A stretch of 63,570 nt of DNA, counting the filler, from Collodictyon triciliatum (Eukaryota): the NCBI GenBank assembly GCA_043381765.1. It is 8 parts of 8 records of this genome, joined end to end, with 100 filler letters (N's around TTAATTAATTAA, not from the genome) between each part and the next. Parts side by side here need not be neighbours in the genome. Positions count along the whole stretch, not along the records: positions 1 to 8,052 come from JBHJMP010003610.1; 7 more parts are not named here. The stretch is one strand, 5' to 3'. How positions within the stretch are numbered: the stretch's first letter is position 1; the number at the start of each line of letters is the position of its first letter. A program made the position numbers and the translations under genes. The notes under the pieces are model-generated. The model had not been told where the DNA came from and did no database searches. It saw nothing but the letters and a program-made list of their open reading frames with translations. Below are positions 1-22,500 of this stretch, piece by piece.

Positions 1-70
1 CAAGGTAACTAATAATTAATAAATGAAATAAGAAAAATTTGACCAAAATCATTCCGTTTGGTGGAATATA

Positions 71-3000
71 ATGTCCATTTCAAACCAGATGAAGCTTGCT
101 CGTGAAGACCTGAAGGAGAGACAATACAAGAAGTGGAATCCGGCTCCACAAAGATACCTGACACCGACACCATTGCCGCTCATTGTCTTTGATGAGCGCG
201 TCATCCGTGTTTTCCTTTCGTCGACCTTCCGTGACATGCAGCAAGAAAGAGACGAGTTTTTCAAGAATGGAGCGCCTGAGTTAGTTTAATACATTTTTAT
301 TGTAAATATATAGTAAGGAATGATAATTTGATGTTATTTATTTCCTAACAATATAATTTAATGCCAGGCTGAAAAGGCTTGCGAAATCATTGGGAGTGGA
401 CCTTGTCTTTATCGACTTGCGCTGGGGACTGACTTCTGTGGACAGTAGCGAGGGATGGGTAATTCACAGTATTATTAACATTTTTTTGATAAATTTTTCA
501 TTATACTGCATTTTATAAAATAATGAACTTCAATTTTCTCCCGTTGATTTCAAGGTTGTGATTCGCTGTCTGGACTCCATCGGAAAATGTCCATACTTTG
601 TGTGCTCTCTCGGTGCGCGCTACGGCTGGATTCCTGACCAGAACAAAACGGAGCTGAACAAGCAGGCCCGCCTCGAGGAGCTGCTGAATACCAAGCCTGA
701 TGCCACCATGAAGGATGTCTCTGTGGAATGGCGCAGTGAAACCAACAGCCGCTTCCCATTCATCGACGAAGTGCCTGGGTTGAGTGTCACTGAATACGAG
801 GTGAAGCGAATATCTATATTTTATTCTTTATCTTTTTATGAATGATAATTGAAAAATAAATCAATTATTCTCTAAATTATATATTCATGTTCAGATTCAG
901 TACGCCTGTCTGATTGACAAACCAGCGTGCAGCCGCGCATTCTTCTACCTCCGTGATGAGCACTATGCTGTCGAACATGCCAAGAACGAGGAAGAATGGA
1001 ATCTGTTCCAAGCTGAAAGCGAAGAGGCGGTAAAAATTGATAGAAAGTCTTTAATTTTCTTTTTTATCTTATTATATTACGTTTATTTAATTATTTGATT
1101 TTTTTGACATATATTATAATGTTTTTTTTAGCGTAAGAGGCAGGAGGAGCTCAAACGGAAAGTCAAGGCCAAGTTCGGGCATGTTGTCTACAAGGGAGCG
1201 AAGGAGTATTCGGACTTTGTGACATACCATCTCACCTACGTCATCAAGCGCGACTTTGGGAATCAAACGGTATTTTTATAATTTTTATAGATTTATGAAG
1301 ATAAGTATTGATTGGTGATGTATTGCATTTCATTTACATTTTGTTGGCATAACTATATTTTAGGTGAGAGACCCTGAAGACCAAGCGCAGCACCAGTTTA
1401 AGATGCACCGACTGGCTGGGTTTGGCGGAAGAAAGGATCTTCTCAAGACAATCACGGAGCAAGTAAGATAAAGATCAACTAATTAAAATGACAACAATAC
1501 CCTTTGAATTTTCTTTTCTTATCAATAATTTTTTTTATTAGGCCATGAATCAGCTGAACACCGAGAAATCCAAAATCATCGTTCTTGCTGCCGAGTCTGG
1601 GATTGGAAAGTCGTCGCTCATGGCTGCTACAGTGAGAGACCTCGAAGGGCTGACGCATCCTGGGCTCCATGTCTTTTTCCATTTTGTCGGATGCACTAAT
1701 CTCAGCAACTACGTGGAAAGGTACGTTCTTTTTATTTCTAATTTTAATATATGCTGCAGACATTTTATTTTGGTTTTTCTAAAAATATATTTTTTTTTAT
1801 TTTAGTGTTTCGATTCGCTTCTGGACTTTGGTCGCAAACTCTGCCAACTTTATCGGCCAAAAGAAGCAAGAAGCTGGTATTGTATTTTATTTTACTTTTA
1901 TCTTTTTAATTCAAATTTTGTATAATTCTTCATGCATTTATTTTATTTTTTATCACCAGAATACGAAAAAGAGGGACTGCAGGGCTTGCTGAAGATGATT
2001 CAGGAGAAAAACAAGTAAAAATTTAATTTTTATGTATTTAAATTATAAAATCGAAATTAAAATACATTGAATCGAATAAAAAATTGATATTAAATTATGT
2101 ATATTGTAGGGACAAGAAGTTTGTCTTCCTCATCGATGCCATCAACCAAATCCACCCGTCGCAAGGAACGCCAGCTTCGCATCTGCTGACCTGGTTGCCC
2201 AAAGAAACGCCAGTTAATGTTGCCATGGTTGTGTCGACCATTCATACCCATGAATCTTGCACGGTATTCATCATTTAATATTATTTTTTGGACATGTTTA
2301 TTTTCTGCATAAAAATGATCTGAGTGGAACTTTACTTAATGTATCTGTCACAAGTCTGCCAAGCAAAGTGGACTGGAGCCGATTCCTGTCGCCAAGTTGA
2401 CTGAGGGCGAAATTAAGGATGGTGTCGAATCCTTCCTCATCCGCTATGACAAGACCCTGAACGAAAAGCAAGTTGGAATGATTCTGGCTGACTTGAAATA
2501 TACTGGTGAGACATATTTTTAAAAGAACATATATTTTGATTAATTTTTCAAGGAATGTTCAGTTATTCTTATCCAATATTTTTATAGGCCATCCGCTCTA
2601 TCTCCGCATCATTCTGGATGAAGTCAGGGTCTTTGGCGTCTATGAGAAGCTCGATGAAGAACTGAAAACTCTGCTTTCGACCAATGGAGTCAATGAGCTC
2701 TACACTCTTATTATCCAGCGCTGGCAACTGAAGTTTGACAGGAAGGGTGAGTATTGGTTTCATATTTCACAAAAAAAAATTATTAAAAAAAAACAATGCA
2801 AAGAATTATAATTGCATAATTTGTTGATTGTTTTTTTATTACAGTTTTCTCATCTGATGGAAAAGAGACAATGAAGGTCGAGTATGTCTCCCTCTCGATG
2901 AAGGTTCTCTTTGTTTCCCGCATTGGCCTGAGTGAAGGTGATTTGGACAAGTACATGAAAGATGCGATTGGCACAGGATTCGAGCTTGCTGAATGGTTCG

Positions 3001-6000
3001 CTTACTCTTGAATTTGAACACAATTAATAGGTTTACCTTTTTCTTTTCTTTTCTTTTTTTATTTAACTTATCTTTTATTCATTCAAATAGGAAATCTTTT
3101 TTCTTTACCCTCATCGAGTCGCTTTTCGTCCGTAATGGAAGGTTAGTCTTATTTTGTCAATCCTTTTGTTCGTTAATTCGTGCTTTCGGTACAATTTTAT
3201 TTTGGATAAGAACTAATTATTGTCTATTATAGATACATGTACTTCCACCAACTACTGCTGGAGACCACCAAAAAGGTCTACTTCTCCGAAAACCAGGAGA
3301 TGGGAAAAACCCACGAAAAATACGGAAAATGGCTGTTTGGCCAGTATTCTGAGGCTGCCGACGCTGATGAGGAGCTTACTGCTGAGATCTGCTACCAGCT
3401 TCTGAAGGGCAGTTCGTTTGAATTGCTTGTCGAATACATGAAGCAAAAACATGTAATTTTTTATTTTATGATATGTTCAATTATTTTCAGTCATAATGAA
3501 ACGATTATACTAAATTTTCTTTATATTTCATAGGTTATCAGCATCATGCTCCGTGGTCGCTATCGCTACGAATTCTTTGCATGCTGGAGAGCAATCAACG
3601 CAAGTGGAGTGGCAAACTACAAAGATGCTTATGGAAATTTGGCTAAGGTAATTTGTTGTTTGATTTTATTATTTTGAAGGTTACTACTCACATATTTAAT
3701 TATCAATCATGATTTATCTATTAATTATTTTTTTTTTTTGTTAATTTTCAGTCTTTGGATAAAGTGGGAGACCTGCTGGTTGGATTTTTCTTGGAATCTT
3801 TTGAGAACTCGTTCTTGTTGTCTGTTCTTAATATGCGCCTTGGACAACATCAGACAGAAGGTATGCAATTGTTATTATTTTTTGATGAATTTATGTCATG
3901 AATATGATTTTATATATGGAGACATTCAATAACTATTAATTCATAGATGCGAAGGCTGCTGATTACCTGTATCTTGGCCGTGTCTACAAGAACCTCCAAA
4001 AGTAAAAATAAAAATATATTAATCATATAATTAGGATATGATATGATGTGATGTTTATTATGCAAACTTTTCTAAAATAAAAATAAATTAAATAGCTGGG
4101 CTGAGTCCATGGTCTACTACAAGAAATGTCTCGATTTAGTTGAGAAAAATGAAGATGATTTCCTGCGTATCGCTACCATTCATGAAGAGATGGGAATTAT
4201 CTACCAGCAACAGGATAAGTAAGGCTCGCTTTCAACTGTAAAATAAATTATGCATAATGTTTCAAAAAGGAATTGTTCTGATTTTTTTTATGAAATAGAA
4301 TTGATGAGGCTCTTGATAAATACAAGAAATCCCTGGACTTAAGAATCAAACAGCTGGGCGAGAACGACCTGCAAGTGGCCCAATCACATGACCGCTTCGG
4401 AGACATCTACGTGAATCAGTCAAAGTAATATTTGAACCATTTATATTCGTTAATATTCTGCTTTTTATTTTTAATTATATGTGCTGATCAATTTTTATGA
4501 TAGGAATGAGCAAGCTCTAGATGAATACAAAAAAGCGATGGAAATCCGCCAAAAGAAAGTCGGAAACGAGCATCCCCTTGTCGCAACATCGTACCAGAAC
4601 TATGGCCATGTCTCTCTGGCTGCGAAAAAGTGGCATATTTGTCCATAAAAGGCAGTTTTAAATACAGCTATGATAATTTTGAGAAATATTAATGTGATTG
4701 AATCATCAAGGTATGAAGAGTCTGTTGAAAACTACGAAAAAGCGAAATCCATCCTTGAAAAATCACTGGGAGCTAAGCATGCATCTGTTGCCTCAGCAAT
4801 CCAGTTTATTGCGAACGTTCATCTTGCCAGTGGAAAGTTCGTTTCTAATTTATAGATATTTATATTCAAGACCTTTTATGGTTTTCAATTTCTGCTAAAC
4901 ATATTTGGCTTCATATATTGCATTTGTATGGACTCTATTTGGGGTTAAGATTATGCATAATGTAATTCTAACTAATTAATAAATATCAAGTAACTTTTAC
5001 ATTATATAGGAAAACTGAGGCCTTGTCCTCATTAAAGCAATCGCTGGATATTTTCATATATTCCCTGGGTGAAAACCATCCGAATGTTGTGGCCTGCTAT
5101 GAAATGATTGGAGACATCAGCCATGATTTGAAGGAGTATCTCTTTTTATCAACTATGTTTATATTTTGAATTGAAAAGAATAATTTATTTACCCATATTA
5201 TTCTAGCTTTAAGGGTGCTTTGGATGCTTATACAAAGACGCTGGATATTCGCATGAGAACACAGGGCAAAAAACATCCTGATTATTCAACTACCCTAGAG
5301 AATGTTGGTAGAACAAACTTTGAGCTTAAAAGGTAATTTCTCAATTATGTACAAAAATCGAATATTTTATTAATACTTATAAAAATGCATTGAATAATTA
5401 CTAATGTGCATGAATTAAGATTGGACCAAGTAGTTGAATACTTCCAAATGGCAGCTGCTATCAGAAAGGAGACAAAGACCGTAATGCTAATCAAAGATGG
5501 CTCACAGGTTGATAACATAATTCTCCTCATGAAGGACAAGAAAGAGTATGCTTTAGCAATCCAGCTATACAAAACGCTGATTCATTTATTCAGCAAGCTT
5601 TACTGCATGGATTATCTCGGAATATCGAACAGCTGTGAAGAAATTGACAAGATTTACAAGGAACTGAGGCAGCACAACGAAGCAGTGGCATTCTGGGCTG
5701 AGATGAGAGACAGATTTGCTGGTAAACTCGGATGGATTCATCCCAGAACATTGAATGCATGCGAATACTTGTCCGTCCATTCAAAAGAAATCAGAATCAA
5801 CAAAGAGGCGGTACAGTTCACAAGAGTTAAGGAATTCATTGACGAAACTATTGATGATGCAAAACTAAATGAGGAATGGAATCGTGAGCAAATCATTGCA
5901 TCGTTATTCAGAATTGTCTACATGTCAAAGACAGATGAGAGCAAATCAAAGGCTGCATCTGATGCCATCACACTTTTGAATTTCATGAATGTTTATTTCG

Positions 6001-7694
6001 GTGGAATGGATTTATCAAACATCAAAATTCCACATGCAAATCTTAGTAACTCAATCCTTGATGGTGCAAACCTCACTGGTGCCAACTTGGATGGTGCGGA
6101 TTTTACGAACTCAACGCTTGGTGATTGCGTTTTTGATAATGTGAATATGAGTAATGTGAAATTTGGACTTCTGAATGATAAACTAGAAGGTCATACAAGA
6201 GCTGTCTATAGTGTTTGCAGTATTCAAGGACCGAATGGTGAAAGTTGGCTGGCTTCAGGGAGTGATGATAAAACAATACGTATTTGGGATGCAGCCTCAG
6301 GAAATCAAATCAGAATATTAGGACATACAGATACTGTCAAAAGTGTTTTCAATATTCAAGGGCCAAATGGTAAAAATTGGTTGGCATCTGGAAGCGATGG
6401 TAGAAAAATACGTATTTGGGATGTATCCACAGGAAATCAAATCAAAACATTAGAAGGACATACAAGTGCTGTCTGGAGTGTATGCAGTATTCAAGGACCG
6501 AATGGTGAAAGTTGGTTGGCTTCTGGAGGTCGTGATAACATGATACAGATTTTGGATATAGCCACAGGAAACCAAATCAAAAAATTAAGAGGTCATACAA
6601 GTTTTGTTTATAGTATTTGCAGTATGCATGGGCCGAATGGTGAAAAGTGGCTGGCTTCTGGAAGTCGTGATAATACAATACGCATTTGGGATATATCTAC
6701 AGGAAAACAAATCAAAACATTACAAGGTCATACAGATGAAGTCAATAGTGTTTGCAGCATTCAAGGACCGAATGGTGAAAATTGGCTGGCTTCTGGAAGT
6801 GGTAGTGACTATCAAAGTCAAGATAAGACAATACGTATTTGGGATGTAGCCACAGGAAAGGAAATCAAAAAATTAGCAGGTCATACAAGGGAAGTCAAAA
6901 GTCTTTGCAGTATGCATGGGCCGAATGGTGAAAGTTGGTTGGCTTCTGGAAGTCGTGATAAAACAATACGTATTTGGGATGTAACCACAGGACATCAAAT
7001 CAAAACATTACAAGGTCATACAGATTGGGTCAATAGTGTTTGCAGCATTCAAGGACAGAATGGTGAAAATTGGCTGGCTTCTGGAAGTGGTAGTGACTTT
7101 GGAAGTCAAGATAGCACAATACGTGTTTGGAATGTAGCCACAGGAAACCAAATCAAAACATTAGAAGGTCATACAAGCGAAGTCACCAGTGTTTGCAGCA
7201 TTCAAGGACCGAGTAGTGAAAAGTGGTTGGCTTCTGGAAGTCGTGATAACACAATACGTATTTGGGATGTAGCCACAGGAAACCAAACGCACAGCCTGCA
7301 AAAGTCAGAAGTGACCTACACCCAAGGAAAATACCTCGTCAAGAAAGAAAAGCCAGACGAAGTCATCGCAGTATTCAACAGAACAAGTGACGCGATGAAT
7401 ATGATTGACACCAACAGAATCCAGGATGCAAAGACTGTCCAGATTATCGGCCCAAGAAAGCTGCAAGGTGGAAACATCCAAATCAGAAATGTCATGGGAT
7501 TGAATGAATTAAACAAATCCCTCCTACTTTCTATCGGTGCTGCTTCCTTTGATGCGGACTTTGCTGTCTATTGTGAGCAGGGTGAGTTCACCATGTTCCA
7601 GGCTCAAATGATGGCTGAGTGCTATGAGAATGGATGGGGTGTTGAGAAGGACACCGAGAAAGCAGCTGAGTGGAGACAGAAAGCCTCAGCTTGA
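71..7694 (+). CDS. NLR-like STAND NTPase: DUF4062 - NACHT/AAA-type NTPase - TPR repeats - pentapeptide repeats - 8x WD40 - C-terminal Sel1-like repeat; about 24 GT-AG introns, terminal exon 5420-7694
   Basis: Spliced translation gives RVFLSSTFRDMQQERD...FIDLRWG...CPYFVCSLGARYGW (DUF4062), Walker A AESGIGKSS (~1590-1615), Walker B FVFLIDAINQ, GHPLYLRIILDEVRVFG, kinesin-light-chain-like TPRs (LGENDLQVAQSH, VGNEHPLVATSY, LGAKHASVAS, LGENHPNVV), ANLSNSILDGANLTGANLDGADF, GH...WD repeats and AECYENGWGVEKDTEKAAEW. Every exon join I checked keeps frame. Confidence 0.9.
6181..7290 (+). repeat. Tandem array of 8 highly similar coding WD40 units (~135 nt; units 5 and 7 carry an 18-nt insertion)
   Basis: Near-identical nucleotide blocks recur (ggtcatac...tgcagtattcaaggaccgaatggtgaaa...tggctggcttctggaagt...acaatacgtatttgggatgta) and encode LxGHTxxVxSVCSIQGPNGExWLASGSxDxTIRIWD. 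Confidence 0.95.
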
Positions 7695-8052
7695 CAAGGT
7701 AAGTAGTATTATAAATGCATATTAATGCATGTTCGTTAACTGTAATCATTTTAGATGGAGAGATTCTCTGGGTTTTTTTCAAGCAGACCTTCGCTTTTTT
7801 CCCACAAGGACACTCCATGAAAACAAAATAAACCCTTAAAAATGAAAGCAAGGCTGATCGATCTCGGTTGCGTCTTTTTTCTTTTTTCTTTTTTCTTTTT
7901 TCTTTTTTCTTTTTTCTTTTTTCTTTTTTCTTTTTTCTTTTTTCTTTTTTCTTTTTTCTCTTTTCTTTTTTCTTTTTTCTTTTTTCTTTTCTTTTTTCTT
8001 TTTTCTTTTTTCTTTTTTCTTTTTTCTTTTTTCTTTTTTCTTTTTTCTTTTT

Positions 8053-8152
8053 NNNNNNNNNNNNNNNNNNNNNNNNNNNNNNNNNNNNNNNNNNNNTTAA
8101 TTAATTAANNNNNNNNNNNNNNNNNNNNNNNNNNNNNNNNNNNNNNNNNNNN
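8053..8152. other. Artificial contig spacer N44-TTAATTAATTAA-N44; identical spacers at 16201-16300, 24349-24448, 32496-32595, 40641-40740, 48783-48882 and 56923-57022
   Basis: A 12-mer stop-codon linker flanked by Ns recurs about every 8.14-8.15 kb. Confidence 0.97.
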
Positions 8153-8970
8153 TCAGTGGGTTGTGTCTTTGTATATTTACGGGGCGGCATATTCCAGGCA
8201 ATATAATTATTGTGTTATTATAACGCGTTGTCTTTAATACAGTATTTACATTCGCAACTGCGTTAGAGTTTAAGGATAATTTACTAAGGTATTGTATGGT
8301 TATATGGATTGTATTAGACGAGGAGCGCGAGAAAGAAGTGATGAAGATTTTATTAGACGGAACAAAAAAGCAACGGAAGAAATTATTAGAAGTTGTTCGT
8401 GTTAAATATTTTCATTCTGGCAACACCTCTTCTTCTAGTGTTTCAGCTAGTGAATATTATGGATGTTCAGATGAAGATGGCCCAGATGGCGACTTTAGCT
8501 AAGGTATAAATAACAAAAAAGCCGGAAAAGATAATCGTAACTTAAACGCGCATTCTTCCCGAACCGTCTGGAATATTCCATCTATATCTGGAATTACCAT
8601 ATATAGATGTGTAACGGGGTATATAAACGGCGAAAAAGCGGGGTTGAGCGGCAACCTGTGGTATTATCACCTATATAATATAGAGGTGATAATACCACAA
8701 ATTACAAGAATTTATATCAACAAAAGAATAAAAAGGGGGCAGAGATACAACAAACGAGTGAATGTTTGGCACTAGCAAATCGTATCTGGCCAGGCAAATG
8801 ACAAGGGCAGCGGGGCTTTCGCTCGATTATGAGACCCGAACCTCCATCTTTCTTACATACGGCTCGTTCTTTGTACCTTTAACACCATCCATCCATAATA
8901 CGTTCACTTCGAGGTACATCGTATAGCCCGTAGCAGGAATAATGATTTTAGACGAAATATAGTTTTGGAG

Positions 8971-9102
8971 ATAGAAGAATAGAAAGAATAGAAAGAATAG
9001 AAAGAATAGAAAGAATAGAAAGAATAGAAAGAATAGAAAGAATAGAAAGAATAGAAAGAATAGAAAGAATAGAAAGAACAGAAAGAACAGAAAGAATAGA
9101 AA
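8971..9102. repeat. (AGAAAGAAT)n microsatellite
   Basis: Directly visible 9-mer tandem repeat. Confidence 0.95.
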
Positions 9103-9250
9103 GAGAGGGAAAGGAGAATGAGAGATTAAGAGAATGAAAATCACGCATTTTTTAATTTCCATTTATTTGTGATATGAAAAAAAAAAAAGGAGAAGAAAGT
9201 ATGTGAGGGGAATAAGGAAAGACAAGTATTCTAGTCAAGATAGATGTACC

Positions 9251-11910: not shown

Positions 11911-12259
11911 ATGCCCGACATACCATTACTGGAATATAGCTCTACAATCACCCTTGCCCCTACAAATACCCTTTATATCTCCCACTGTCACGCCAATCTA
12001 TCATCCATATGCTCCTATTCCATCATATGACGTACTTTTGCTGAATATCATTCCGTTGTGGAGTTCTGTCTCGTACACACTTTTGAGGAAGATACACGCA
12101 GCCCAGCCCGACTGATTCCGCGAACGCCACCATGGCAAATGCCACCCAGCCTAACGGTGCCACGATGGGCAAAAGCCTCAACCACCCTCTAGCTGGTGGC
12201 GCTTCCATACATACCGACCCAAAGGATTGAGCGCTCGTGAGAAGTACCACCGAACTAAT

Positions 12260-12401
12260 AAAAGAAAAAGAAAAAGAAAAAGAAAAAGAAAAAGAAAAAG
12301 AAAAAGAAAAAGAAAAAGAAAAAGAAAAAGAAAAAGAAAAAGAAAAAGAAAAAGAAAAAGAAAAAGAAAAAGAAAAAGAAAAAGAAAAAGAAAAAGAAAA
12401 A
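12260..12401. repeat. (GAAAAA)n microsatellite between the two tRNA-U5 units
   Basis: Directly visible. Confidence 0.95.
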
Positions 12402-13729
12402 GGAATGACATACCAGGCGCTCTTTTGTCCTGTCTGTCAAATAAAGCAGGGATCACGACCCATACCTCGACCTTCGAGTCTCTTCAGCCATATTCGTCCT
12501 ACAAGCACAACTTGCTTCAACATCAGAGTATTTTTACCGCCAGCGGGCGGATAATCCGCGTGGAAGCCTTTCGCCCATGAAAAGCGCAAAAACCCAACGC
12601 ACCACGCATCACACTAAGAGCATACGCGAGAGCATCCTGTATACTCGCACAGCATCATTCACAGTCCTATCAAATTAGTGCGCAGTTATGCAAATCAAAA
12701 CACTTTGGCACACACTGAAAGGAAGAATAAAATAATAATAAACCACTTTGGCATAAAAAGAAAAATACTTTGGATGATGAATCCGTGCATGCCGAGTCAT
12801 GATGGTTGGGTGTATGCATCCTCACCCCCCTTTTTGGTTGCTCTGATATTTCATCTGTTTATATTATTTTGTCTTACTGGTATCTTTGCTGCGACACTGA
12901 TATGAAGACATCAGGGGCCATAGACGTGTGGCAATATTGACAAATCCAGTGAATGGAGCGCACTCGAAATGGAGCATACAAGACAGAACGTTGTTAAACA
13001 ACATGCGGATTAGCCATACGCACAACAGTCAAGGGGTGCGCAGGAGTAAGTCGTAACCAAAAGGCTTCTAGGATAGAGATTATGAGGGAATTGCAGAGTT
13101 GGGACAACAAATGCCAATCTGGAGAGGGAGCTGAGAGCAGGAAGAAACAGACGGAGACAACGAACAGATGACTTCTGATTGTAAAGCAAACCGTGTTCTC
13201 GATTGTAACGAAAGGAAAAGAGTTGTATGTTTAGGAGCCACATCAAATGGGACGGCATGGGTTCTGAGAACCTTGGGGAGTACCAGAAAGGGCGGATGGG
13301 CAAAGATACAGGGAAGTATCCAAGGCTGCAGCTTTCTTGGAGTCTACTCTTGGATGGGGCGATGGAGATAAGCGGGGGTATATAGGCAAACAGAAATGAA
13401 TGAGAGGAGGATAGAGTATAAAGAAGCGAGTGACTTTTGGTGAGTCAAGAGGACGAGCGAGGGGGATGTCACGGACAAATGAGTGCGGTTGTACTCGTAT
13501 TTGTGAGGACGAGGGAGATGATAAAATAGAGGTTTGGAGGAAGTGCCGACAAAGAGGCGACCGCAGAGAGGGTAGGATGGGGATGGATTGAGGGGTTTGT
13601 AGGGGGGTAGAGCTAAGGGTGGGACGAGATTGGAAGGTGGAGCAGGTGGGGGAGACGAGGCGGGGCGATTGAAGAGGGCGTTTGGACGAGAAGGAGGTGA
13701 CAAGTATGTTTGCTTTCCGAGGCAAGAAA

Positions 13730-14243: not shown

Positions 14244-16353
14244 TACGGGTATTGCGGGGCATAAGGATACCTCTACGAGATGTGTTGCGCTGTTATGTCG
14301 TGTTGCGTCGAATGCCCTTTAATCGTTGCTGGGTTCTTCCTCGCCCCCGCTTGTGGACAGGCCGCATTGATTACATCTGCCAGCGAACAATGTCAGAATT
14401 ATGCCAGCCTCTCATCTTGTCCCAAAAGACCTGCTTGAGCCACATTCCTAGCGCATCCATATGAATACTCACATATCCTGTGTTATGCTTGCTGAGGGCG
14501 ATTATAGCTTTGTAAAGCATTCCCGTAAATGTTCTGTCACAGGTTCATCGGCTGTAGCTGGTTTGTCAATGAACCTGTAGACTTGCTCGCATAAGCAATT
14601 CTCTCGCTGATTTCCTTTAATTCTTTTCATCTACTGTACTTTCCATTTGCCAATCTACATCTGCCCTCTGCCATAGACCCTTAGTTCGCCTACTTGCACA
14701 ACCAAAACGCATTAAGTTTTCCTAAAATATGAATGAAGTTAAGGCATGGCCCGAAGCTAAAGTTCTGTGTAGATTTATGTATGTGCAATCTTTTGAATAG
14801 CCAATTACTCTTTTTTTTTTTAATTAATGTGGAGGTCTATGTGCTCCCGCAAATCGCGACTATATCCCACAAAACTGCATTTTCATTAAACGTTAGGGTT
14901 TTGAGGAATAGAATAAAACAACACTGTTAGCTGAGTGAAATATGTCTTTAGAGATTTAGCATCATAGATGTAATGAGTTTACATTATGAGATTTTATTGT
15001 GTTCTATTGTCCAATACCAGGGATATTGGGGCCTAATGCGGCGTTTGCTTAAACCCTAAGACCAAGCCCTCTTCTTCATATCGCCAGACATTACGAAAGC
15101 TAAATTGGGGTGCCTATTATTTTGCGGATAACTTATCGAGGATTGATATTATGAGGAAAAATAACAACCTACTGCCCAACATTTTTACACAATCGATTCT
15201 TTTCAAAATCGTAATGCTAACACCATAAGCTTTCCTCTTTTTTGTATTTTTATGATTGCAAAAACTTATGATCGGTAGCTTTATAAGAATGAAATATGAG
15301 ACTGAAAAAATTACAGTTTTCCTCACTAATATGATTTCCCCCCTTTATTTGAATAAACAAATTCCCATCACTACGATATATGGCAAAGCATAACATCAAG
15401 AGAAGTCGAAGGCCCTGGAGTTTGTGGTTGGGATTCGATTTACAGAGGAAAAAAAAATTGAGATGATAAATACGTCTTTGGTATGACTCATATTTTGGAT
15501 TCGAGATATGTATTTTTGGCAAAGGACCCAGCACATGCTAAAAACAAATAAATGGAAAATATGTAGTAACGACGGAGGCGATATACCTCGAACCAATACC
15601 GGGGAAAGCAAGACGAGGCTTCAATCTCATAAAACTTTTATCGCTCAATTATAGCAAAGAATTCAATTCATCATTCTTTGTGTATATATTATATTAACGA
15701 ATGATTTGAATGTCTAATTTATAGGCTGGGACTGCGGTTATCAGCATAGAGTTCTTTGTTTGCGCAAAGATTGTGAACCCGCACAATTAAAACCTATGTA
15801 CCATACTAATTGTTTGGGGGTTCTTAAAAATAGTTAAGAGTGATTCCACATTTAGAATCTCAATTTTTTGCCTCTTCCATTTTTTAAACTTCGCTTGCTA
15901 TCTGCGTTCCAGCTACAACAAACAGGCGCCAGAACCCAACAACAAACGACAGGCCACGTCCCTGCCCGCTGTTATATAATCACCGCGCTCATAGTTGAAG
16001 ATGATACAGGCCCCTAACGCGTTGAATAAAGTCAAAATAACTTTCTCTCCCCTTCTCAGTTTTCACTACGGGCAGATCTTTGTATTTCTCTCTTTGGATA
16101 ATAAACAAATAAACAAATAAACAAATAAACAAATAAACAAATAAACAAATAAACAAATAAACAAATAAACAAATAAACAAATAAACAAATAAACAAATAA
16201 NNNNNNNNNNNNNNNNNNNNNNNNNNNNNNNNNNNNNNNNNNNNTTAATTAATTAANNNNNNNNNNNNNNNNNNNNNNNNNNNNNNNNNNNNNNNNNNNN
16301 TTATCTTTTTTTATCTTTTTTTATCTTTTTTTATCTTTTTTTATCTTTTTTTA

Positions 16354-19500: not shown

Positions 19501-22500
19501 GAGGTGCGAGATATTAACTCAAGATTTGGTACACACTTTATAGGCACTTTGCAGAGTTATCATGCAAAAGGCGCGAGAACTTTTAAAGGCAGATAGGTGC
19601 ACTTTGTTTTTAGTTGACCAGGTAAATGTTGACAGAGAATCTAACAGTGCTCCGTTCAATACTTTCTTTTACTTTGTGCGCACGGCCCCAAATTTCCCAA
19701 TCATGTATTCCACTGGTCGTTTGATCCTTTTCATAGATATTTTACTCATTACTAAGAATTGTATATCAGGAAAGAAAAGAACTGTGGTCCCAGGTGGCTG
19801 AAGGTGCTGCCGAAATTCGTTTTCCCATGAATCTTGGAATTGCTGGTCATGTTGCAACATCAGGCGAAACATTGAACATCCCTGAGGCCTACGAAGATAC
19901 TCGATTCAATCCCGAAATCGACCGAAAAACAGGTAAGATGTTCTATCACATGAGATTATATTGATTATGATTAAGACGGCTATCACCATTGGCAGTATGC
20001 GAAAGATGATGAGCCTTTTTTTTTTGTGGGCATTCAAACCGGTGTTATGTTTTACTGATATTGCCAAACTTACTAGGCTATCGAACGAAAACGATTCTTT
20101 GCATGCCCATCATCAATCCGATGCAGCAGAAAATTGTTGGGGTCACTCAAATGATAAACAAGGTATCAAAATTTTAATTTTAATTTTATTTCTTTTCTTG
20201 TTTTATTTTTTTCGAAATTAAGTTTGCTGATCTTGCTAATTGTAGTTGAGTGGACAGAAATTTGATGATGTTGATGAAGATTTGCTTCAGGCATTCAGCG
20301 CTCAGGTTTGTTTAATCATTCTGTCCAATGAAAGCAAAGAACATTTTTATGCGTGCAAATACGCAAAACATTTTGTCATAGTTTTATGTTTCTTAAGGCT
20401 GGTGTTGCAATCGAAAATTCAATTTCTTTCGGGGAATCTATCAAAGCCAGAACCCATTTGCAACAAGTGAGTTTCCATACTTTGACGGTTTGAAAAGGGT
20501 CGAAAATGAAAATCAAGGGAGCTTGCATCATTGTCCTTTATATATTCAAGACGTGAAGGATGCAGCAGTTTAATAGTTCGTCTGTAGGTTTTGGGGAGTA
20601 TAACGAGTTTGGTGATCAATTTGAAGGGAGATGGCAAGCTCTACACATCGAACAAGCCGCCGGATTCAATCTTGGGTGTTAGTGAAGAAATGATGAAAGT
20701 CAATGTGTACACGGAATGGATGGGCACATTGAACAAGGTAATTCGCGCTGATTTGAAACTATAGAACAATATCATTTTTTCTCTCTTTTCACTTTTCTGT
20801 ATTTTTCCTCTTTTTTCCTCTTTTTTCCTCTTTTTTCCTCTTTTTTCCTCTTTTTTCCTCTTTTTTCCTCTTTTTCTCTTTTTCTCTTTTTTCTCTATTT
20901 TTCTCTATTTTTCTCTATTTTTCTCTATTTTTCTCTATTTTTCTCTATTTTTCTCTATTTTTCTCTATTTTTCTCTATTTTTCTCTATTTTTCTCTATTT
21001 TTCTCTATTTTCTGCTATTTTTAACTTTTTTTTTTCAAAATTATTAATTAGGTGATGATGGATGACATTACAAGCGTCCTTGAAACCCACAACCCTGTTA
21101 ACTCTGGGGATTATATATACACTCTTCCGAACCAAGCGGCCGTAACAAAGACAATTACATATAGCATCGTCCCACTTCGAAATAAGGTTACCTTGTTTTT
21201 TTTTCTGTATATCAACATAGTGTTTGAGTAGAGCTGATCGGGAAGAATTACAAAAATGGAGACATTTGCCTGTGGAATTAACTGTTTTGCTTTGAAAATC
21301 ACTAGGAGGACGGAATTGTGTTGATTGTTAATGACATTACCCATGAAACAAAGTAAGTACACGTACTAAAATTTTTAGAACTTTATCGTGGCGTAAAGAT
21401 TTGAATGATAATATGAATTTTGTTTTGTTTGTGTATAGGTTGAAAAACACTCTGTCGCGCTACATGTCACCGGCTCTTGCACAAGAAGTGATGAAGGATG
21501 GAAGCCTGAAACTTGGAGGAAAGTCCCAAAAGGTATTCTTTCTTTGGCTTCTTTTATCTGGGTGAGACAGCCAAGAATGAAAGTTTTATTTTCTATCAAT
21601 TCCACCTGTTTTTTTTTTCTTATTTTTTGCTTCTTATTTCTTACCCGTTATGTATCATATGGGCTGTATATTTCACTTTTAGTGGAGAAGGAACGCTTGA
21701 GCTTGTGTAAGATTGAAGCATCAACTTACCATGTTTTATTCTTGATTTTTTATGATTGTTCGTATTATCATTTTTTTAGTTGTATATGCCTTTTTTTTTT
21801 TTTTTGAGATAAGGCTGTTCTAATTGCCCGGTTTTATAGACGAATGGAAATAATTTTCAGTCTAATGATACGTCCGAATTTGATATGAATGTTGAATAAT
21901 GACAACCTTCATGTGAAGCATACGTACTTGCTTGATATTCCTATATATTTACTCATATAGAAACAAAACAAAACAATAATATTTTCAGGTGACCATCGTA
22001 TTCTCAGACATTCGCAAATTCACATCCCTCAGTGAGGGAATGACAGCCACCAAAGTCGTCGACATGCTGAATGAATACTTCTCTAGCATGGTTCATGAGG
22101 TCTTTAATGAAAACGGCGTTTTGGACAAATATATCGGTGAGCGTTGAAAGCATCACAATCACACTCATTACAATCATTACAATCATCACAATCATCACAA
22201 TCATCACAATCATCACAATCATCACAATCATCACAATCATCACAATCATCACAATCATCACAATCATCAAAGGGGATGCATTGATGGCTGTGTGGGGCGT
22301 GCCTGTCCTCCACGGAGACGACGCCATCCGTGCGTGTCGCACAGCCGTGAGGATGATAATCAGTCTGAACGCCCTCAACGAAGTCCGAGCCGGCCGCGGA
22401 GAAATGCCCATCAAAATCGGGATTGGACTCAACACTGGGATGGTAGTGAGCGGGAACATCGGCTCGGAGAAGCGGCTGGAATACACGGTGATTGGAGACG

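Follow-up and report, generated by a model that had tools for sequence, protein, structure and literature searches.

The DNA analysed here (the window; 63,570 nt in all, filler included, from Collodictyon triciliatum, GCA_043381765.1) consists of eight pieces of about 8 kb with spacers N44-TTAATTAATTAA-N44 between them, so that only positions 1-8052 are contiguous with the gene under consideration. The locus as a whole is probably best explained by one protein-coding gene of the NLR-like STAND receptor type, whose spliced translation runs through DUF4062, STAND NTPase, TPR, pentapeptide and WD40 regions to a Sel1-like tail. This order agrees with the first-pass annotation, which had described a chimeric NLR-like STAND gene with a TPR array, then pentapeptide-WD40 repeats and Sel1, the last of these being sub-threshold in Pfam. 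The features are the following:

1-4, plus strand: end of an upstream coding exon (4 nt, CAAG), inferred, the rest lying beyond the window edge
5-88, plus strand: intron of 84 nt (GTAACT..CCAG), inferred from the sequence and a contig break at 87
203-1029, plus strand: NIR/DUF4062 TIR-like domain, predicted NADase, in four exons (89-279, 368-458, 555-800, 895-1029), from Pfam and homology
783-800, plus strand: SVTEYE motif with the putative catalytic glutamate, end of exon 3, from the alignment to TEP1
1364-3860, plus strand: STAND NTPase module (NACHT/NPHP3_N-like) with a helical/winged-helix region, 12 exons, from Pfam and paralogues
1599-1613, plus strand: Walker A, GIGKS, from the sequence and its translation
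3947-5332, plus strand: TPR array, exons 18-24, one phase-2 intron per 42-aa unit, from the model and TPR_12
5333-5419, plus strand: last coding intron, 87 nt (GTAATT..TTAAG), which if retained gives a stop after one codon
5420-5765, plus strand: three degenerate TPR-like hairpins outside the shared cassette, from AlphaFold2 and Foldseek
5766-6188, plus strand: start of the cassette, two helices (including AASDAITLL), then a pentapeptide beta-helix, from homology, Pfam and the model
6189-7298, plus strand: array of eight WD40 units, each 44-51 aa long and highly conserved among themselves, from Pfam and tandem repeats
7299-7694, plus strand: conserved C-terminal tail (NVMGLNELNKSLLLSIGA) with the stop TGA at 7692-7694, from homology
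7608-7688, plus strand: single Sel1-like repeat, where such repeats usually come several together (Sel1 PF08238, 27.5 bits, cutoff 30.7; E 4.3e-6)
7699-7754, plus strand: 3'UTR intron, 56 nt (GTAAGT..TTTTAG), from a listed joint and a loose end
7873-8052, no strand: (TCTTTTT)n microsatellite reaching the artificial spacer 8053-8152, from the tandem-repeat listing and the sequence

The gene model was built by dynamic programming, forced from the ATG at 71 to the stop at 7692-7694, and comprises 25 exons. Its 24 introns, all GT..AG, are 71-173 nt long (mean 92 nt, GC 0.20), and read-through meets an in-frame stop in every one of them. After the last coding intron the coding exon 5420-7694 is uninterrupted for 2.27 kb, which bears out the earlier description of about 24 short introns before an intronless 2.27-kb exon; both AASDAITLL and the tail string named there are present in the translation. 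With the Diphylleia transcript product P0001 as a tblastn query, 23 of the 25 exons were recovered, while exons 9 and 19 were not found with it. In RNA contigs from relatives or paralogues, 90-99% alike to the window (that two of the source runs are RNA is only a guess), the removal of 11 of the 24 introns is seen among 15 joints listed of 82: nine match exactly introns 3, 4, 6, 7, 8, 9, 10, 15 and 18, two have the same length as introns 1 and 5 but are shifted by 2 nt, two near introns 13-14 disagree with the model, and the remaining two are a length variant of the WD array and the 3'UTR intron. The latter joint (7696 to 7753, cut +2) occurs in contigs X1, X2 and X3, and a loose end ATGGAGAGATT lies at 7698. 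Because of this 56-nt GT..AG intron in the 3'UTR the big exon, formerly called terminal, is the last coding exon only.

At the other edge, contigs X2 and X4 break off from the window at 87, their loose end being ..CTTGACA, which reads in frame as ..CILLDK|MKLAREDL and matches ..SILQDK|FTFWKTQ of P0001. The ATG at 71, where the gene span had been made to start, probably sits inside the intron 5-88 (absent among the 15 joints listed of 82) and is not the true start, and the gene is probably cut by the 5' edge of the window and continues upstream. The proteins P0001, P0122 and P0158 have 275-460 extra N-terminal residues beyond the model start, with a CH domain in this extension in P0001 and P0158, and a CH region is probable upstream, outside the window.

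The Pfam family DUF4062 (PF13271) is matched by exon 1 (21.1 bits, profile 1-18) and exon 3 (24.2 bits, profile 46-73), each under the cutoff of 24.7, since the domain is interrupted by introns; the corresponding region of P0001, 56% identical to the window there, reaches 42.2 bits with the same cutoff and matches PDB 11gz_A, a fragment of human TEP1 (E 1.6e-16). In the alignment with 11gz_A, the SVTEYE of the window and P0001 is placed against SVTEME of TEP1, both Glu residues being conserved, and which of them equals E1008 hangs on the assumed chain numbering. According to two 2026 preprints (bioRxiv 10.64898/2026.05.01.722283 and 10.64898/2026.09.04.749371), DUF4062 is a TIR-like NADase (NIR) with NADase activity in bacterial defence and in TEP1, and it stands at the N-terminus of eukaryotic NLR-like proteins. 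Its conserved catalytic glutamate is E108 in PsAvs2 and E1008 in human TEP1 (the latter in 10.64898/2026.09.04.749371). The head is, as judged by its sequence, a member of the NIR/DUF4062 family that keeps the putative catalytic Glu motif, and a predicted NADase. Exon 7 matches NPHP3_N (20.7 bits), NACHT (16.0), nSTAND1 and AAA_16, all under the Pfam cutoffs, and a candidate Walker B (hhhhD, as FVFLIDA) is present in the translation. Paralogues exceed the cutoffs by a narrow margin: P0158 scores 27.4 bits for NACHT (cutoff 26.7) and 32.0 for nSTAND1 (cutoff 27.1), and P0160 scores 28.7 for NPHP3_N (cutoff 24.8). The window's module is a candidate STAND NTPase of the NACHT/NPHP3-like type.

The TPR arm shows repeated helix hairpins of the kinesin-light-chain type with 42-aa units. 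Five of its exons are exactly 126 nt long, and all five match TPR_12 (PF13424) as single units with 20-29 bits (cutoff 30.1), the value for P0001 being 73.7 bits; the units are mutually 27.6% identical in aa and 47% in nt. The AlphaFold2 model covering the first part of the big exon (pLDDT 88, pTM 0.82) has helices at 2-18, 27-39, 43-60, 66-82, 85-103 and 108-123, and among PDB folds those of kinesin light chain TPR domains match 5420-5765 best (3nf1, E 4.3e-4, with a modest Foldseek TM of 0.36). This segment of about 116-120 aa aligns to the TPR-type Diphylleia proteins only, and over the opening 120 aa of this exon neither Pfam TPR nor a custom TPR-unit HMM gave a match; its structural model suggests that it is TPR-like, and across 5332/5420 the register of the TPR units, their helical fold and the phase of the introns are all maintained. 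The three TPR-like hairpins lie inside the big exon, and therefore the boundaries of exon and module do not coincide. The equation of the whole big exon with the cassette has accordingly to be narrowed, since its first ~116 aa are TPR-like and the shared cassette begins at about aa 1163-1207. The TPR arm is probably old, with about seven intron-delimited units and three degenerate ones (~10 in all).

The cassette itself was correctly recognised as the C-terminal part of NACHT-pentapeptide-WD40 proteins, with homologues in Reticulomyxa, Mortierella, Mycoavidus, Glomeribacter and Paramecium. The set of such proteins (Reticulomyxa filosa, Mortierella, Paramecium, Mycoavidus, Glomeribacter, Magnetobacterium, cyanobacteria and the Diphylleia protein P0011) shares with the window the helix AAS.AIT.LNF, the pentapeptide beta-helix and the WD40 array, while homology in the tail is weak. 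BLASTP matches to 18 NACHT-type proteins show 34-46% identity across 80-150 aa ahead of the WD repeats, from aa ~1163-1209, the homology beginning at model aa 1163 for P0011 and at ~1203-1209 for the others. The pentapeptide family PF00805 is matched with 36.6 bits (cutoff 20.2) at nt 6036-6134, and the beta-helix occupies 197-240 in the AlphaFold2 model. However, in the NACHT-type proteins the cassette stands directly behind their own NACHT, whereas in the window it follows a ~10-unit TPR arm, and the only NTPase present, some 400 aa upstream, is headed by the NIR domain.

WD40 PF00400 is matched with 232.5 bits in eight stretches, with tandem-repeat periods of 135, 153 and 288 in the array. 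The array is, by its sequence, young: the units are mutually 81% identical in nt and 69% in aa on average, versus 47% nt for the TPR units, with a mean dN/dS of ~0.6, and one RNA contig (90-99% alike) differs by 825 nt in array length. Variation among the units is greatest at positions 5 and 7, with five residues each, and at 28 and 43, with four each; six further positions, including 4, 19, 26 and 39, have three residues each. Positions 5, 7 and 26 probably correspond to the top-face hot spots of WD40, where ligands are contacted. The tail is 43-54% identical to those of P0001, P0032 and P0003 and 22% to that of the NACHT-type P0011, and the Sel1-like motif is kept in Diphylleia tails. The GC3 values are 0.56 in the head, 0.47 in the linker, 0.37 in the pentapeptide part, 0.24 in the WD units and 0.53 in the tail, and the RSCU of the head correlates with that of the big exon at only 0.24; the anomaly of composition is limited to the pentapeptide-WD repeats, the linker and the tail being near the head's GC3.

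The gene is a member of an established multi-paralogue family shared with Diphylleia rotans, and the locus is by sequence closest to this CRuMs flagellate, the host being a free-living protist. The series TPR-pentapeptide-WD40 is found in five D. rotans transcripts, with 39-48% identity where they align, and two of these transcripts run the whole way from the NADase head to the tail. The model (15-1725) aligns collinearly and in one HSP with the complete transcript product P0001 (348-2139; 47.7%), and the tail (1660-1803) with P0001 2471-2613 (43%); P0122 aligns with 39% over model 2-1688, and P0032, P0162 and P0003 align as well. In two head searches against 5.8 billion proteins, identity above 30% over more than 20% of the query was found in D. 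rotans only, the other matches of similar coverage having 22-29%, and in a profile search of 1.84 billion representatives the TPR-to-pentapeptide junction was spanned among the best 150 matches only by P0003, P0001 and P0162.

It is likely that such a protein works by sensing a ligand through its repeats, NTP-driven oligomerisation and then NAD+ hydrolysis. In the resting state the repeat arms would keep the NTPase closed; a ligand would bind, most likely on the WD40 propeller at its variable top face, and would permit nucleotide exchange and oligomerisation, which would gather the NIR heads for NAD+ hydrolysis, so that the infected cell might arrest its growth or die, or an NAD-derived signal might be released. 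As for the TPR arm, it might serve as a further sensor, keep the protein autoinhibited or bind a partner. The role of an NLR-like sensor is favoured because the WD units are young, variable in number and most divergent at the putative ligand-contact positions. Fungal NLRs of the HET-E/HET-D type reportedly (Paoletti 2007, Dyrka 2014) contain highly internally conserved (HIC) WD40/TPR/ANK repeats. HIC sensor repeats are nearly identical tandem units whose variation falls on surface positions under positive selection. The WD units of the window likewise have a high nt identity (81%), with variation gathered in few positions and a variable unit number; however, their identity is below that of the most extreme fungal arrays, their overall dN/dS of 0.6 falls short of showing positive selection, and the host is a CRuMs-type protist and not a fungus.

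A non-immune protein, that is, a cytoskeletal or ciliary scaffold or a regulatory STAND protein like nephrocystin-3, NWD1 or TEP1, whose repeats bind fixed partners, is unlikely but deserves to be weighed. Outside Diphylleia, the named proteins closest to the head carry the label nephrocystin-3 or TEP1, which are not known to be immune proteins, the paralogues have an N-terminal calponin-homology domain, and Diphylleia is a flagellate. However, many diverged paralogues of the family occur within this one species, the putative NADase catalytic motif is kept, and the pattern of young, number-variable WD units that differ most at the putative contact positions is typical of non-self sensors rather than of housekeeping propellers.

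It is improbable that the locus gives two products, a NIR-NTPase-TPR protein ending at intron 24 and the big exon as a separate gene or alternative transcript, although the stop one codon into the retained intron 24 would produce such an end, the joint 5332/5420 is absent among the 15 joints listed of 82 in the RNA contigs of relatives or paralogues, and truncated forms do assemble from RNA: the D. rotans isoforms P0158, P0159 and P0161 terminate a single residue beyond the homologous intron sites of the TPR region, and P0160 ends after a short read-through. Such truncated Trinity isoforms are expected from unspliced pre-mRNA, whereas the full-length D. rotans ORFs cross the junction gap-free, the reading frame is open from 5394, just past an intronic stop, and the 42-aa register, intron phase and helical fold persist into the big exon.

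The history of this single gene may be read from the trees of its two parts. In the cassette tree (24 rows, 141 columns) the window and five Diphylleia TPR-type proteins form one clade (98/99), with the Diphylleia NACHT-type P0011 as its sister (92/90, below the star threshold and on 141 columns). In the head tree (16 rows, 953 columns) the fused genes again form one clade (100/99), with the TPR-only P0194 (95/95) and P0196 outside, their head being nested within the TPR-only paralogues of the lineage. Since the fused genes are monophyletic in both trees and P0011 is sister to the cassette, a single old fusion within the lineage is indicated by the sequences, and not a recent retrocopy or transfer; the separate head and cassette phylogenies proposed as a check speak against a recent graft. 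The fusion probably joined a TPR-only NIR-STAND gene of the TTC41/NPHP3 kind to the cassette at the C-terminus of a NACHT-pentapeptide-WD40 gene. Diphylleia has both TPR-only heads (P0194, P0196) and a NACHT-headed cassette (P0011), which supports an origin by domain shuffling; a recent or unique graft is not supported.

The least probable explanation, if only slightly below that of two products, is a recent graft in this genome, by which an intronless pentapeptide-WD40 cassette was retro-copied or horizontally acquired (for example from bacteria of the Mycoavidus/Glomeribacter type or from another eukaryote) and placed behind a TPR-STAND gene: the 24 introns in 5.3 kb against none in 2.27 kb, the GC3 of 0.24-0.37 against 0.56 with the low RSCU correlation, and the cassette homologues in bacteria and scattered eukaryotes favour it, but the fused architecture is already present in the five diverged D. 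rotans transcripts, both halves are monophyletic with the lineage's own NACHT-type gene as the cassette's sister, the module boundary lies ~350 nt into the exon and not at an intron, the linker and tail are near the head's composition, and a simple retrocopy of a mature mRNA would be without the spliced intron downstream. The intron-free big exon is better explained by turnover of the WD array than by a recent insertion: copies of an intronless unit would have multiplied and become homogenised, and the cassette would have been poor in introns from the outset. The drop of GC3 from the head through the pentapeptide part to the WD units is only partly explained by the proposed history.

Among known systems, the NIR-headed NLR-like proteins (TTC41, NPHP3-like, NWD1/2, TEP1) likewise have an N-terminal DUF4062/NIR with the Glu motif, a STAND NTPase and C-terminal repeats, TTC41/NPHP3 having the layout common to the window's head and TPR arm. 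The bacterial NIR-Avs, Swarozyc, Vulcan and Vesta defence proteins are similarly composed of NIR, STAND NTPase and repeats (bioRxiv 10.64898/2026.09.04.749371, 10.64898/2026.05.01.722283). However, along its length the window's head shares only 23-27% identity with the closest proteins from outside Diphylleia, and, in contrast to the one repeat type of NIR-headed proteins, TPR is followed by pentapeptide-WD40, with a CH domain added in front in the paralogues. The NIR-headed NLR-like type itself is known, and what stands apart is a predicted NADase head with two different repeat arms in series. Two sensor types in series, as had been claimed, are indeed unusual but not unique: P0155 (JGI metagenome, 1567 aa) combines DUF4062-NTPase-TPR (921-990)-WD40 (1262-1545) in the same serial order, but its head is only 24% identical and no pentapeptide is in its precomputed Pfam list, and its architecture probably arose independently.

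The gene belongs to a known kind of system, the NLR-like proteins headed by an NIR (DUF4062) domain, and at least one other protein parallels its dual-arm layout independently: P0155, an unrelated JGI metagenome protein, which likewise carries a DUF4062 head, then TPR and then WD40 repeats. Its notable points are the two serial repeat arms of very different age, a probable calponin-homology (CH) front end, and the survival of both parental gene types in the lineage. The features below come from Pfam-type scans of the exon pieces taken one by one, not of the joined coding sequence, and from the make-up of the window.

Features of the product and of the window
Exons 1 and 3: DUF4062, profile match
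Exon 7: NPHP3_N / NACHT / nSTAND P-loop, profile match below cutoff
Each of five 126-nt exons: TPR_12, profile match
Pentapeptide repeats: profile match, 36.6 bits
WD40 repeats: profile match, eight stretches, 232.5 bits
Sel1-like repeat: one stretch, 27.5 bits against a cutoff of 30.7
8053-8152: spacer, N44-TTAATTAATTAA-N44; like spacers near 16201, 24349, 32496, 40641, 48783 and 56923

In two preprints of 2026, DUF4062 is renamed NIR and shown to be a TIR-like NADase that acts as effector in bacterial defence proteins, Avs among them, and is active in human TEP1, with eukaryotic carriers that are mostly NLR-like and bear the NIR at the N-terminus, such as TTC41, NWD1/2 and TEP1, NPHP3 being borderline (10.64898/2026.09.04.749371; 10.64898/2026.05.01.722283). 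The NIR region of P0001, a Diphylleia rotans transcript product, matches the solved TEP1 fragment 11gz_A with an E-value of 1.6e-16; its SVTEYE aligns with SVTEME of TEP1, and the identical SVTEYE is encoded at 783-800 of the window. Because of these matches, together with the Walker A (GIGKS) and hhhhD Walker B motifs, both present in the translation, the protein may be read from its sequence as a sensor-switch-effector, in which the repeats would bind a ligand, NTP-dependent oligomerisation would follow, and the clustered NIR heads would hydrolyse NAD+. A non-immune scaffold role, of the NPHP3 or TEP1 kind, is given a small probability beside this reading. A link between NIR/DUF4062 NADase heads and immunity dates only from 2026, and their eukaryotic NLR-like carriers are without known function. 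With this gene, cell-autonomous immunity through NAD+ depletion has a candidate in a free-living flagellate that can be put to the test. PADLOC matches among the related D. rotans products were set aside, namely the weak Avs1b of P0158 (22 bits) and HEAT-ARM_XIII of P0162 (55.8 bits), whose residues 728-809 fall, by the coordinates derived in this analysis, within its pentapeptide region; P0160 gave no PADLOC match.

Variability among the WD units peaks at positions 5 and 7, at each of which five different residues occur; positions 28 and 43 have four each, and six further positions, among them 4, 19, 26 and 39, show three residues. Positions 5, 7 and 26 would correspond to the top-face hot spots of WD40 propellers, which makes the propeller the likelier variable sensor; the TPR arm would serve as a second sensor or as an autoinhibitory or partner-binding arm. 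The mean dN/dS among the WD units is 0.6, a value that does not demonstrate positive selection. A fuller picture, speculative and rather unlikely, would be a lineage-specific NADase-NLR family of CRuMs-type protists, perhaps tethered by CH to the cytoskeleton, with two arms of different function on one switch, whose ancient, intron-delimited TPR arm holds the NTPase shut or attaches to an invariant partner of the host, whose rapidly remodelled WD40 arm recognises variable non-self such as giant-virus or bacterial proteins, and whose regulated intron retention at TPR-unit boundaries yields forms devoid of the WD arm. If true, the dual-arm reading would mean that one immune receptor of a protist combines guard and sensor, with NAD+ depletion as the output.

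The spliced model was built by dynamic programming from codon log-odds (trained on the big exon, 5420-7694) and a score for AT-rich introns, with GT..AG introns allowed between 35 and 400 nt, its endpoints being fixed at ATG 71 and the stop at 7692-7694. It comprises 25 exons and 24 introns (71-173 nt) for a product of 1804 aa, with a GC content of 0.20 in introns versus 0.41-0.47 in exons, an in-frame stop upon read-through of any of the 24 introns, a final coding intron at 5333-5419, and coding open without break over 5420-7694. Both strings named in the first-pass annotation, AASDAITLL and NVMGLNELNKSLLLSIGA, are found in the translation. A search of 5.8 billion proteins gave as top relatives ORFs from Trinity transcripts of D. 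rotans (EukProt EP00002), and P0001, a complete ORF of 2619 aa, is collinear with the model in a single HSP (aa 15-1725 versus 348-2139, 47.7% identity), with the tail matching as well (aa 1660-1803 versus 2471-2613, 43%); with P0001 as the query, tblastn recovered 23 of the 25 exons from the window, and tblastn with the model returned no HSP outside 1-7700. The RNA evidence comes from four public runs, X1-X4, containing 5-7% of the sampled words of the gene, two of which are freshwater metatranscriptomes and two no more than presumed to be RNA; since their contigs are 90-99% alike to the gene, they derive from relatives or paralogues. Among the 15 of 82 joints listed, introns 3, 4, 6, 7, 8, 9, 10, 15 and 18 are skipped exactly, those numbered 1 and 5 are skipped with a slight offset, and two joints near introns 13-14 disagree with the model, seemingly because the alignment of diverged copies breaks there. 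Those 15 do not include the joint 5332/5420, which says nothing for or against its splicing.

Two separate products in place of one are quite improbable and would be conceivable only as isoforms with a retained intron. Such isoforms would be favoured by the stop that follows after one codon when intron 24 is retained, as also with introns 18, 19 and 20, and by the "complete" D. rotans ORFs P0158, P0159 and P0161, which stop a single residue (K or R) beyond the homologous TPR intron sites, a fourth, P0160, ending after a short read-through. The comparison of these ends with introns 18-24 of the window (4002-5419), whose GTAA donors put a stop just past the junction, looks like intron retention in D. 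rotans, and the homologous sites suggest that the TPR intron positions are conserved between both organisms.

At the 5' side, the gene probably extends past the window edge. At position 87 the X2 and X4 contigs part from the window and go on with as many as 172 letters unlike it, the last 30 of which read in the gene frame ..CILLDK followed by MKLAREDL, the counterpart in P0001 being ..SILQDK|FTFWKTQ. Positions 1-4 (CAAG) would fit the end of an upstream exon and 5-88 (GTAACT..CCAG, 84 nt) an intron, and ATG 71 is therefore probably intronic. Extra N-terminal residues, 275-460 of them, are present in the D. rotans products P0001, P0122 and P0158, with a CH domain in the extension of P0001 and P0158, and a CH front end is accordingly probable for the gene, judged by these relatives. 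At the 3' side, the big exon had been taken as terminal; however, a 56-nt GT..AG intron in the 3'UTR (7699-7754) is removed in the X1-X3 contigs. This intron begins five bases past the stop, too near for nonsense-mediated decay to be expected.

The first-pass annotation also inferred that an intronless sensor cassette, retro-copied or horizontally acquired, had been grafted onto a TPR-STAND gene. The boundary of modules differs, however, from the boundary of the exon at 5420. The seven introns before the big exon are all of phase 2 and interrupt each 42-aa TPR unit at one and the same point; the big exon opens in that phase and register too. For its first 241 aa, an AlphaFold2 model (alignment A1; pLDDT 88, pTM 0.82) predicts six helices forming three hairpins (2-123), two helices (155-188) and then the beta-helix, and the best PDB folds for the start of the exon are kinesin-light-chain TPR domains. 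Pfam found no TPR in 5421-5780, which covers its first 116 residues, and a unit HMM from the five TPR exons found no units past aa 1046, including with the filters off; the start of the big exon is read as putative TPR-like hairpins on the strength of the predicted structure and its fold match. The cassette is, as the first-pass annotation held, the C-terminal part of NACHT-pentapeptide-WD40 proteins; its homology to NACHT-type proteins starts only at model aa 1163 for P0011, the NACHT-headed cassette protein of D. rotans, and at about 1203-1209 for Reticulomyxa, Mortierella, Mycoavidus, Glomeribacter and others.

The fusion is neither unique nor recent, as five D. rotans transcripts (P0001, P0122, P0032, P0162 and P0003) carry TPR, pentapeptide and WD40 in this order, with a matching tail in the four checked (P0001, P0032, P0162 and P0003). 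The same species has, besides P0011, the TPR-only heads P0194 (1331 aa) and P0196 (1064 aa), which end naturally past the TPR arm. A cassette tree computed on its non-repeat start (24 rows, 141 columns) groups the gene and the five fused D. rotans proteins in one clade (98/99) with P0011 as sister (92/90), Reticulomyxa, Mortierella and bacterial sequences falling outside; the head tree (16 rows, 953 columns) likewise unites the fused genes in one clade (100/99), with P0194 (95/95) and P0196 as successive outgroups and nephrocystin-3-labelled metagenome proteins as the root group. These congruent phylogenies indicate a single fusion within the lineage, predating the divergence of paralogues to 39-57% identity. 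Matches of the head in organisms other than Diphylleia reach, at comparable coverage, only 22-29% identity. A profile search (1.84 billion representatives, E<=1e-3) gave 96,767 hits, swamped by pentapeptide-rich proteins; in the best 150 of them, only three Diphylleia proteins span the junction of TPR and pentapeptide, and weaker full-span homologues could be hidden below these. Two giant proteins of one contig of bacterial size (2.28 Mb), P0041 and P0120, both combine pentapeptide and WD40, with NACHT and Sel1 added in P0041 and TPR in P0120; thus, Sel1 or TPR was joined to the cassette also outside the Diphylleia lineage.

The TPR units, identical by 27.6% in amino acids and 47% in nucleotides, are old, while the eight WD units (69% and 81%) are young, and the WD array may have been repeatedly amplified and homogenised from an intron-free unit and so remained without introns. 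GC3 declines from 0.56 (head) through 0.47 (linker) and 0.37 (pentapeptide region) to 0.24 (WD array) and returns to 0.53 (tail); the low stretch, 5985-7298, lies inside the big exon between flanks of 0.47 and 0.53. This drop coincides with the repeats instead of with the whole exon or cassette, a pattern that counts against a foreign block. A recent retrocopy or horizontal graft of the cassette is very improbable, being opposed by both trees, the junction position, this composition pattern and the 3'UTR intron. 3'-biased intron loss through cDNA recombination is another possible cause of the intron-free exon, the simple version of which the spliced 3'UTR intron opposes. One X1 contig has a WD array 825 nt longer than that of the window (joint at 6201-7025), which indicates variation in unit number among paralogues or strains.

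No paper describing the TPR-pentapeptide-WD40 STAND architecture was found in the literature, although Supplementary Table S5 of 10.64898/2026.09.04.749371, which draws on the same EukProt set (v3), may already list the Diphylleia proteins; a phrase search of PMC12258605 for mixed repeat types gave no matches, and among the papers listed by a literature search for D. rotans together with NLR none contains 'Diphylleia rotans'. The locus provides the full exon-intron anatomy of one NIR gene from a deep-branching protist lineage little described genomically, and shows clearly how an NLR can evolve through the fusion of modules, in which a TTC41/NPHP3-like head with its TPR arm was joined to a NACHT-type pentapeptide-WD40 cassette, one gene thus contrasting an old arm with one intron per unit and a young, homogenised, intron-free arm. 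The window itself is an artificial chain of eight pieces of about 8.05 kb joined by the spacers, which are six-frame stop linkers, and therefore neighbours across the spacers are not genomic neighbours and only 1-8052 represents this locus. Long microsatellites, (TCTTTTT)n and other hexa- and heptanucleotide runs, are frequent in the pieces, as at 7873-8052, 8950-9130, 12030-12440 and 22100-22400.
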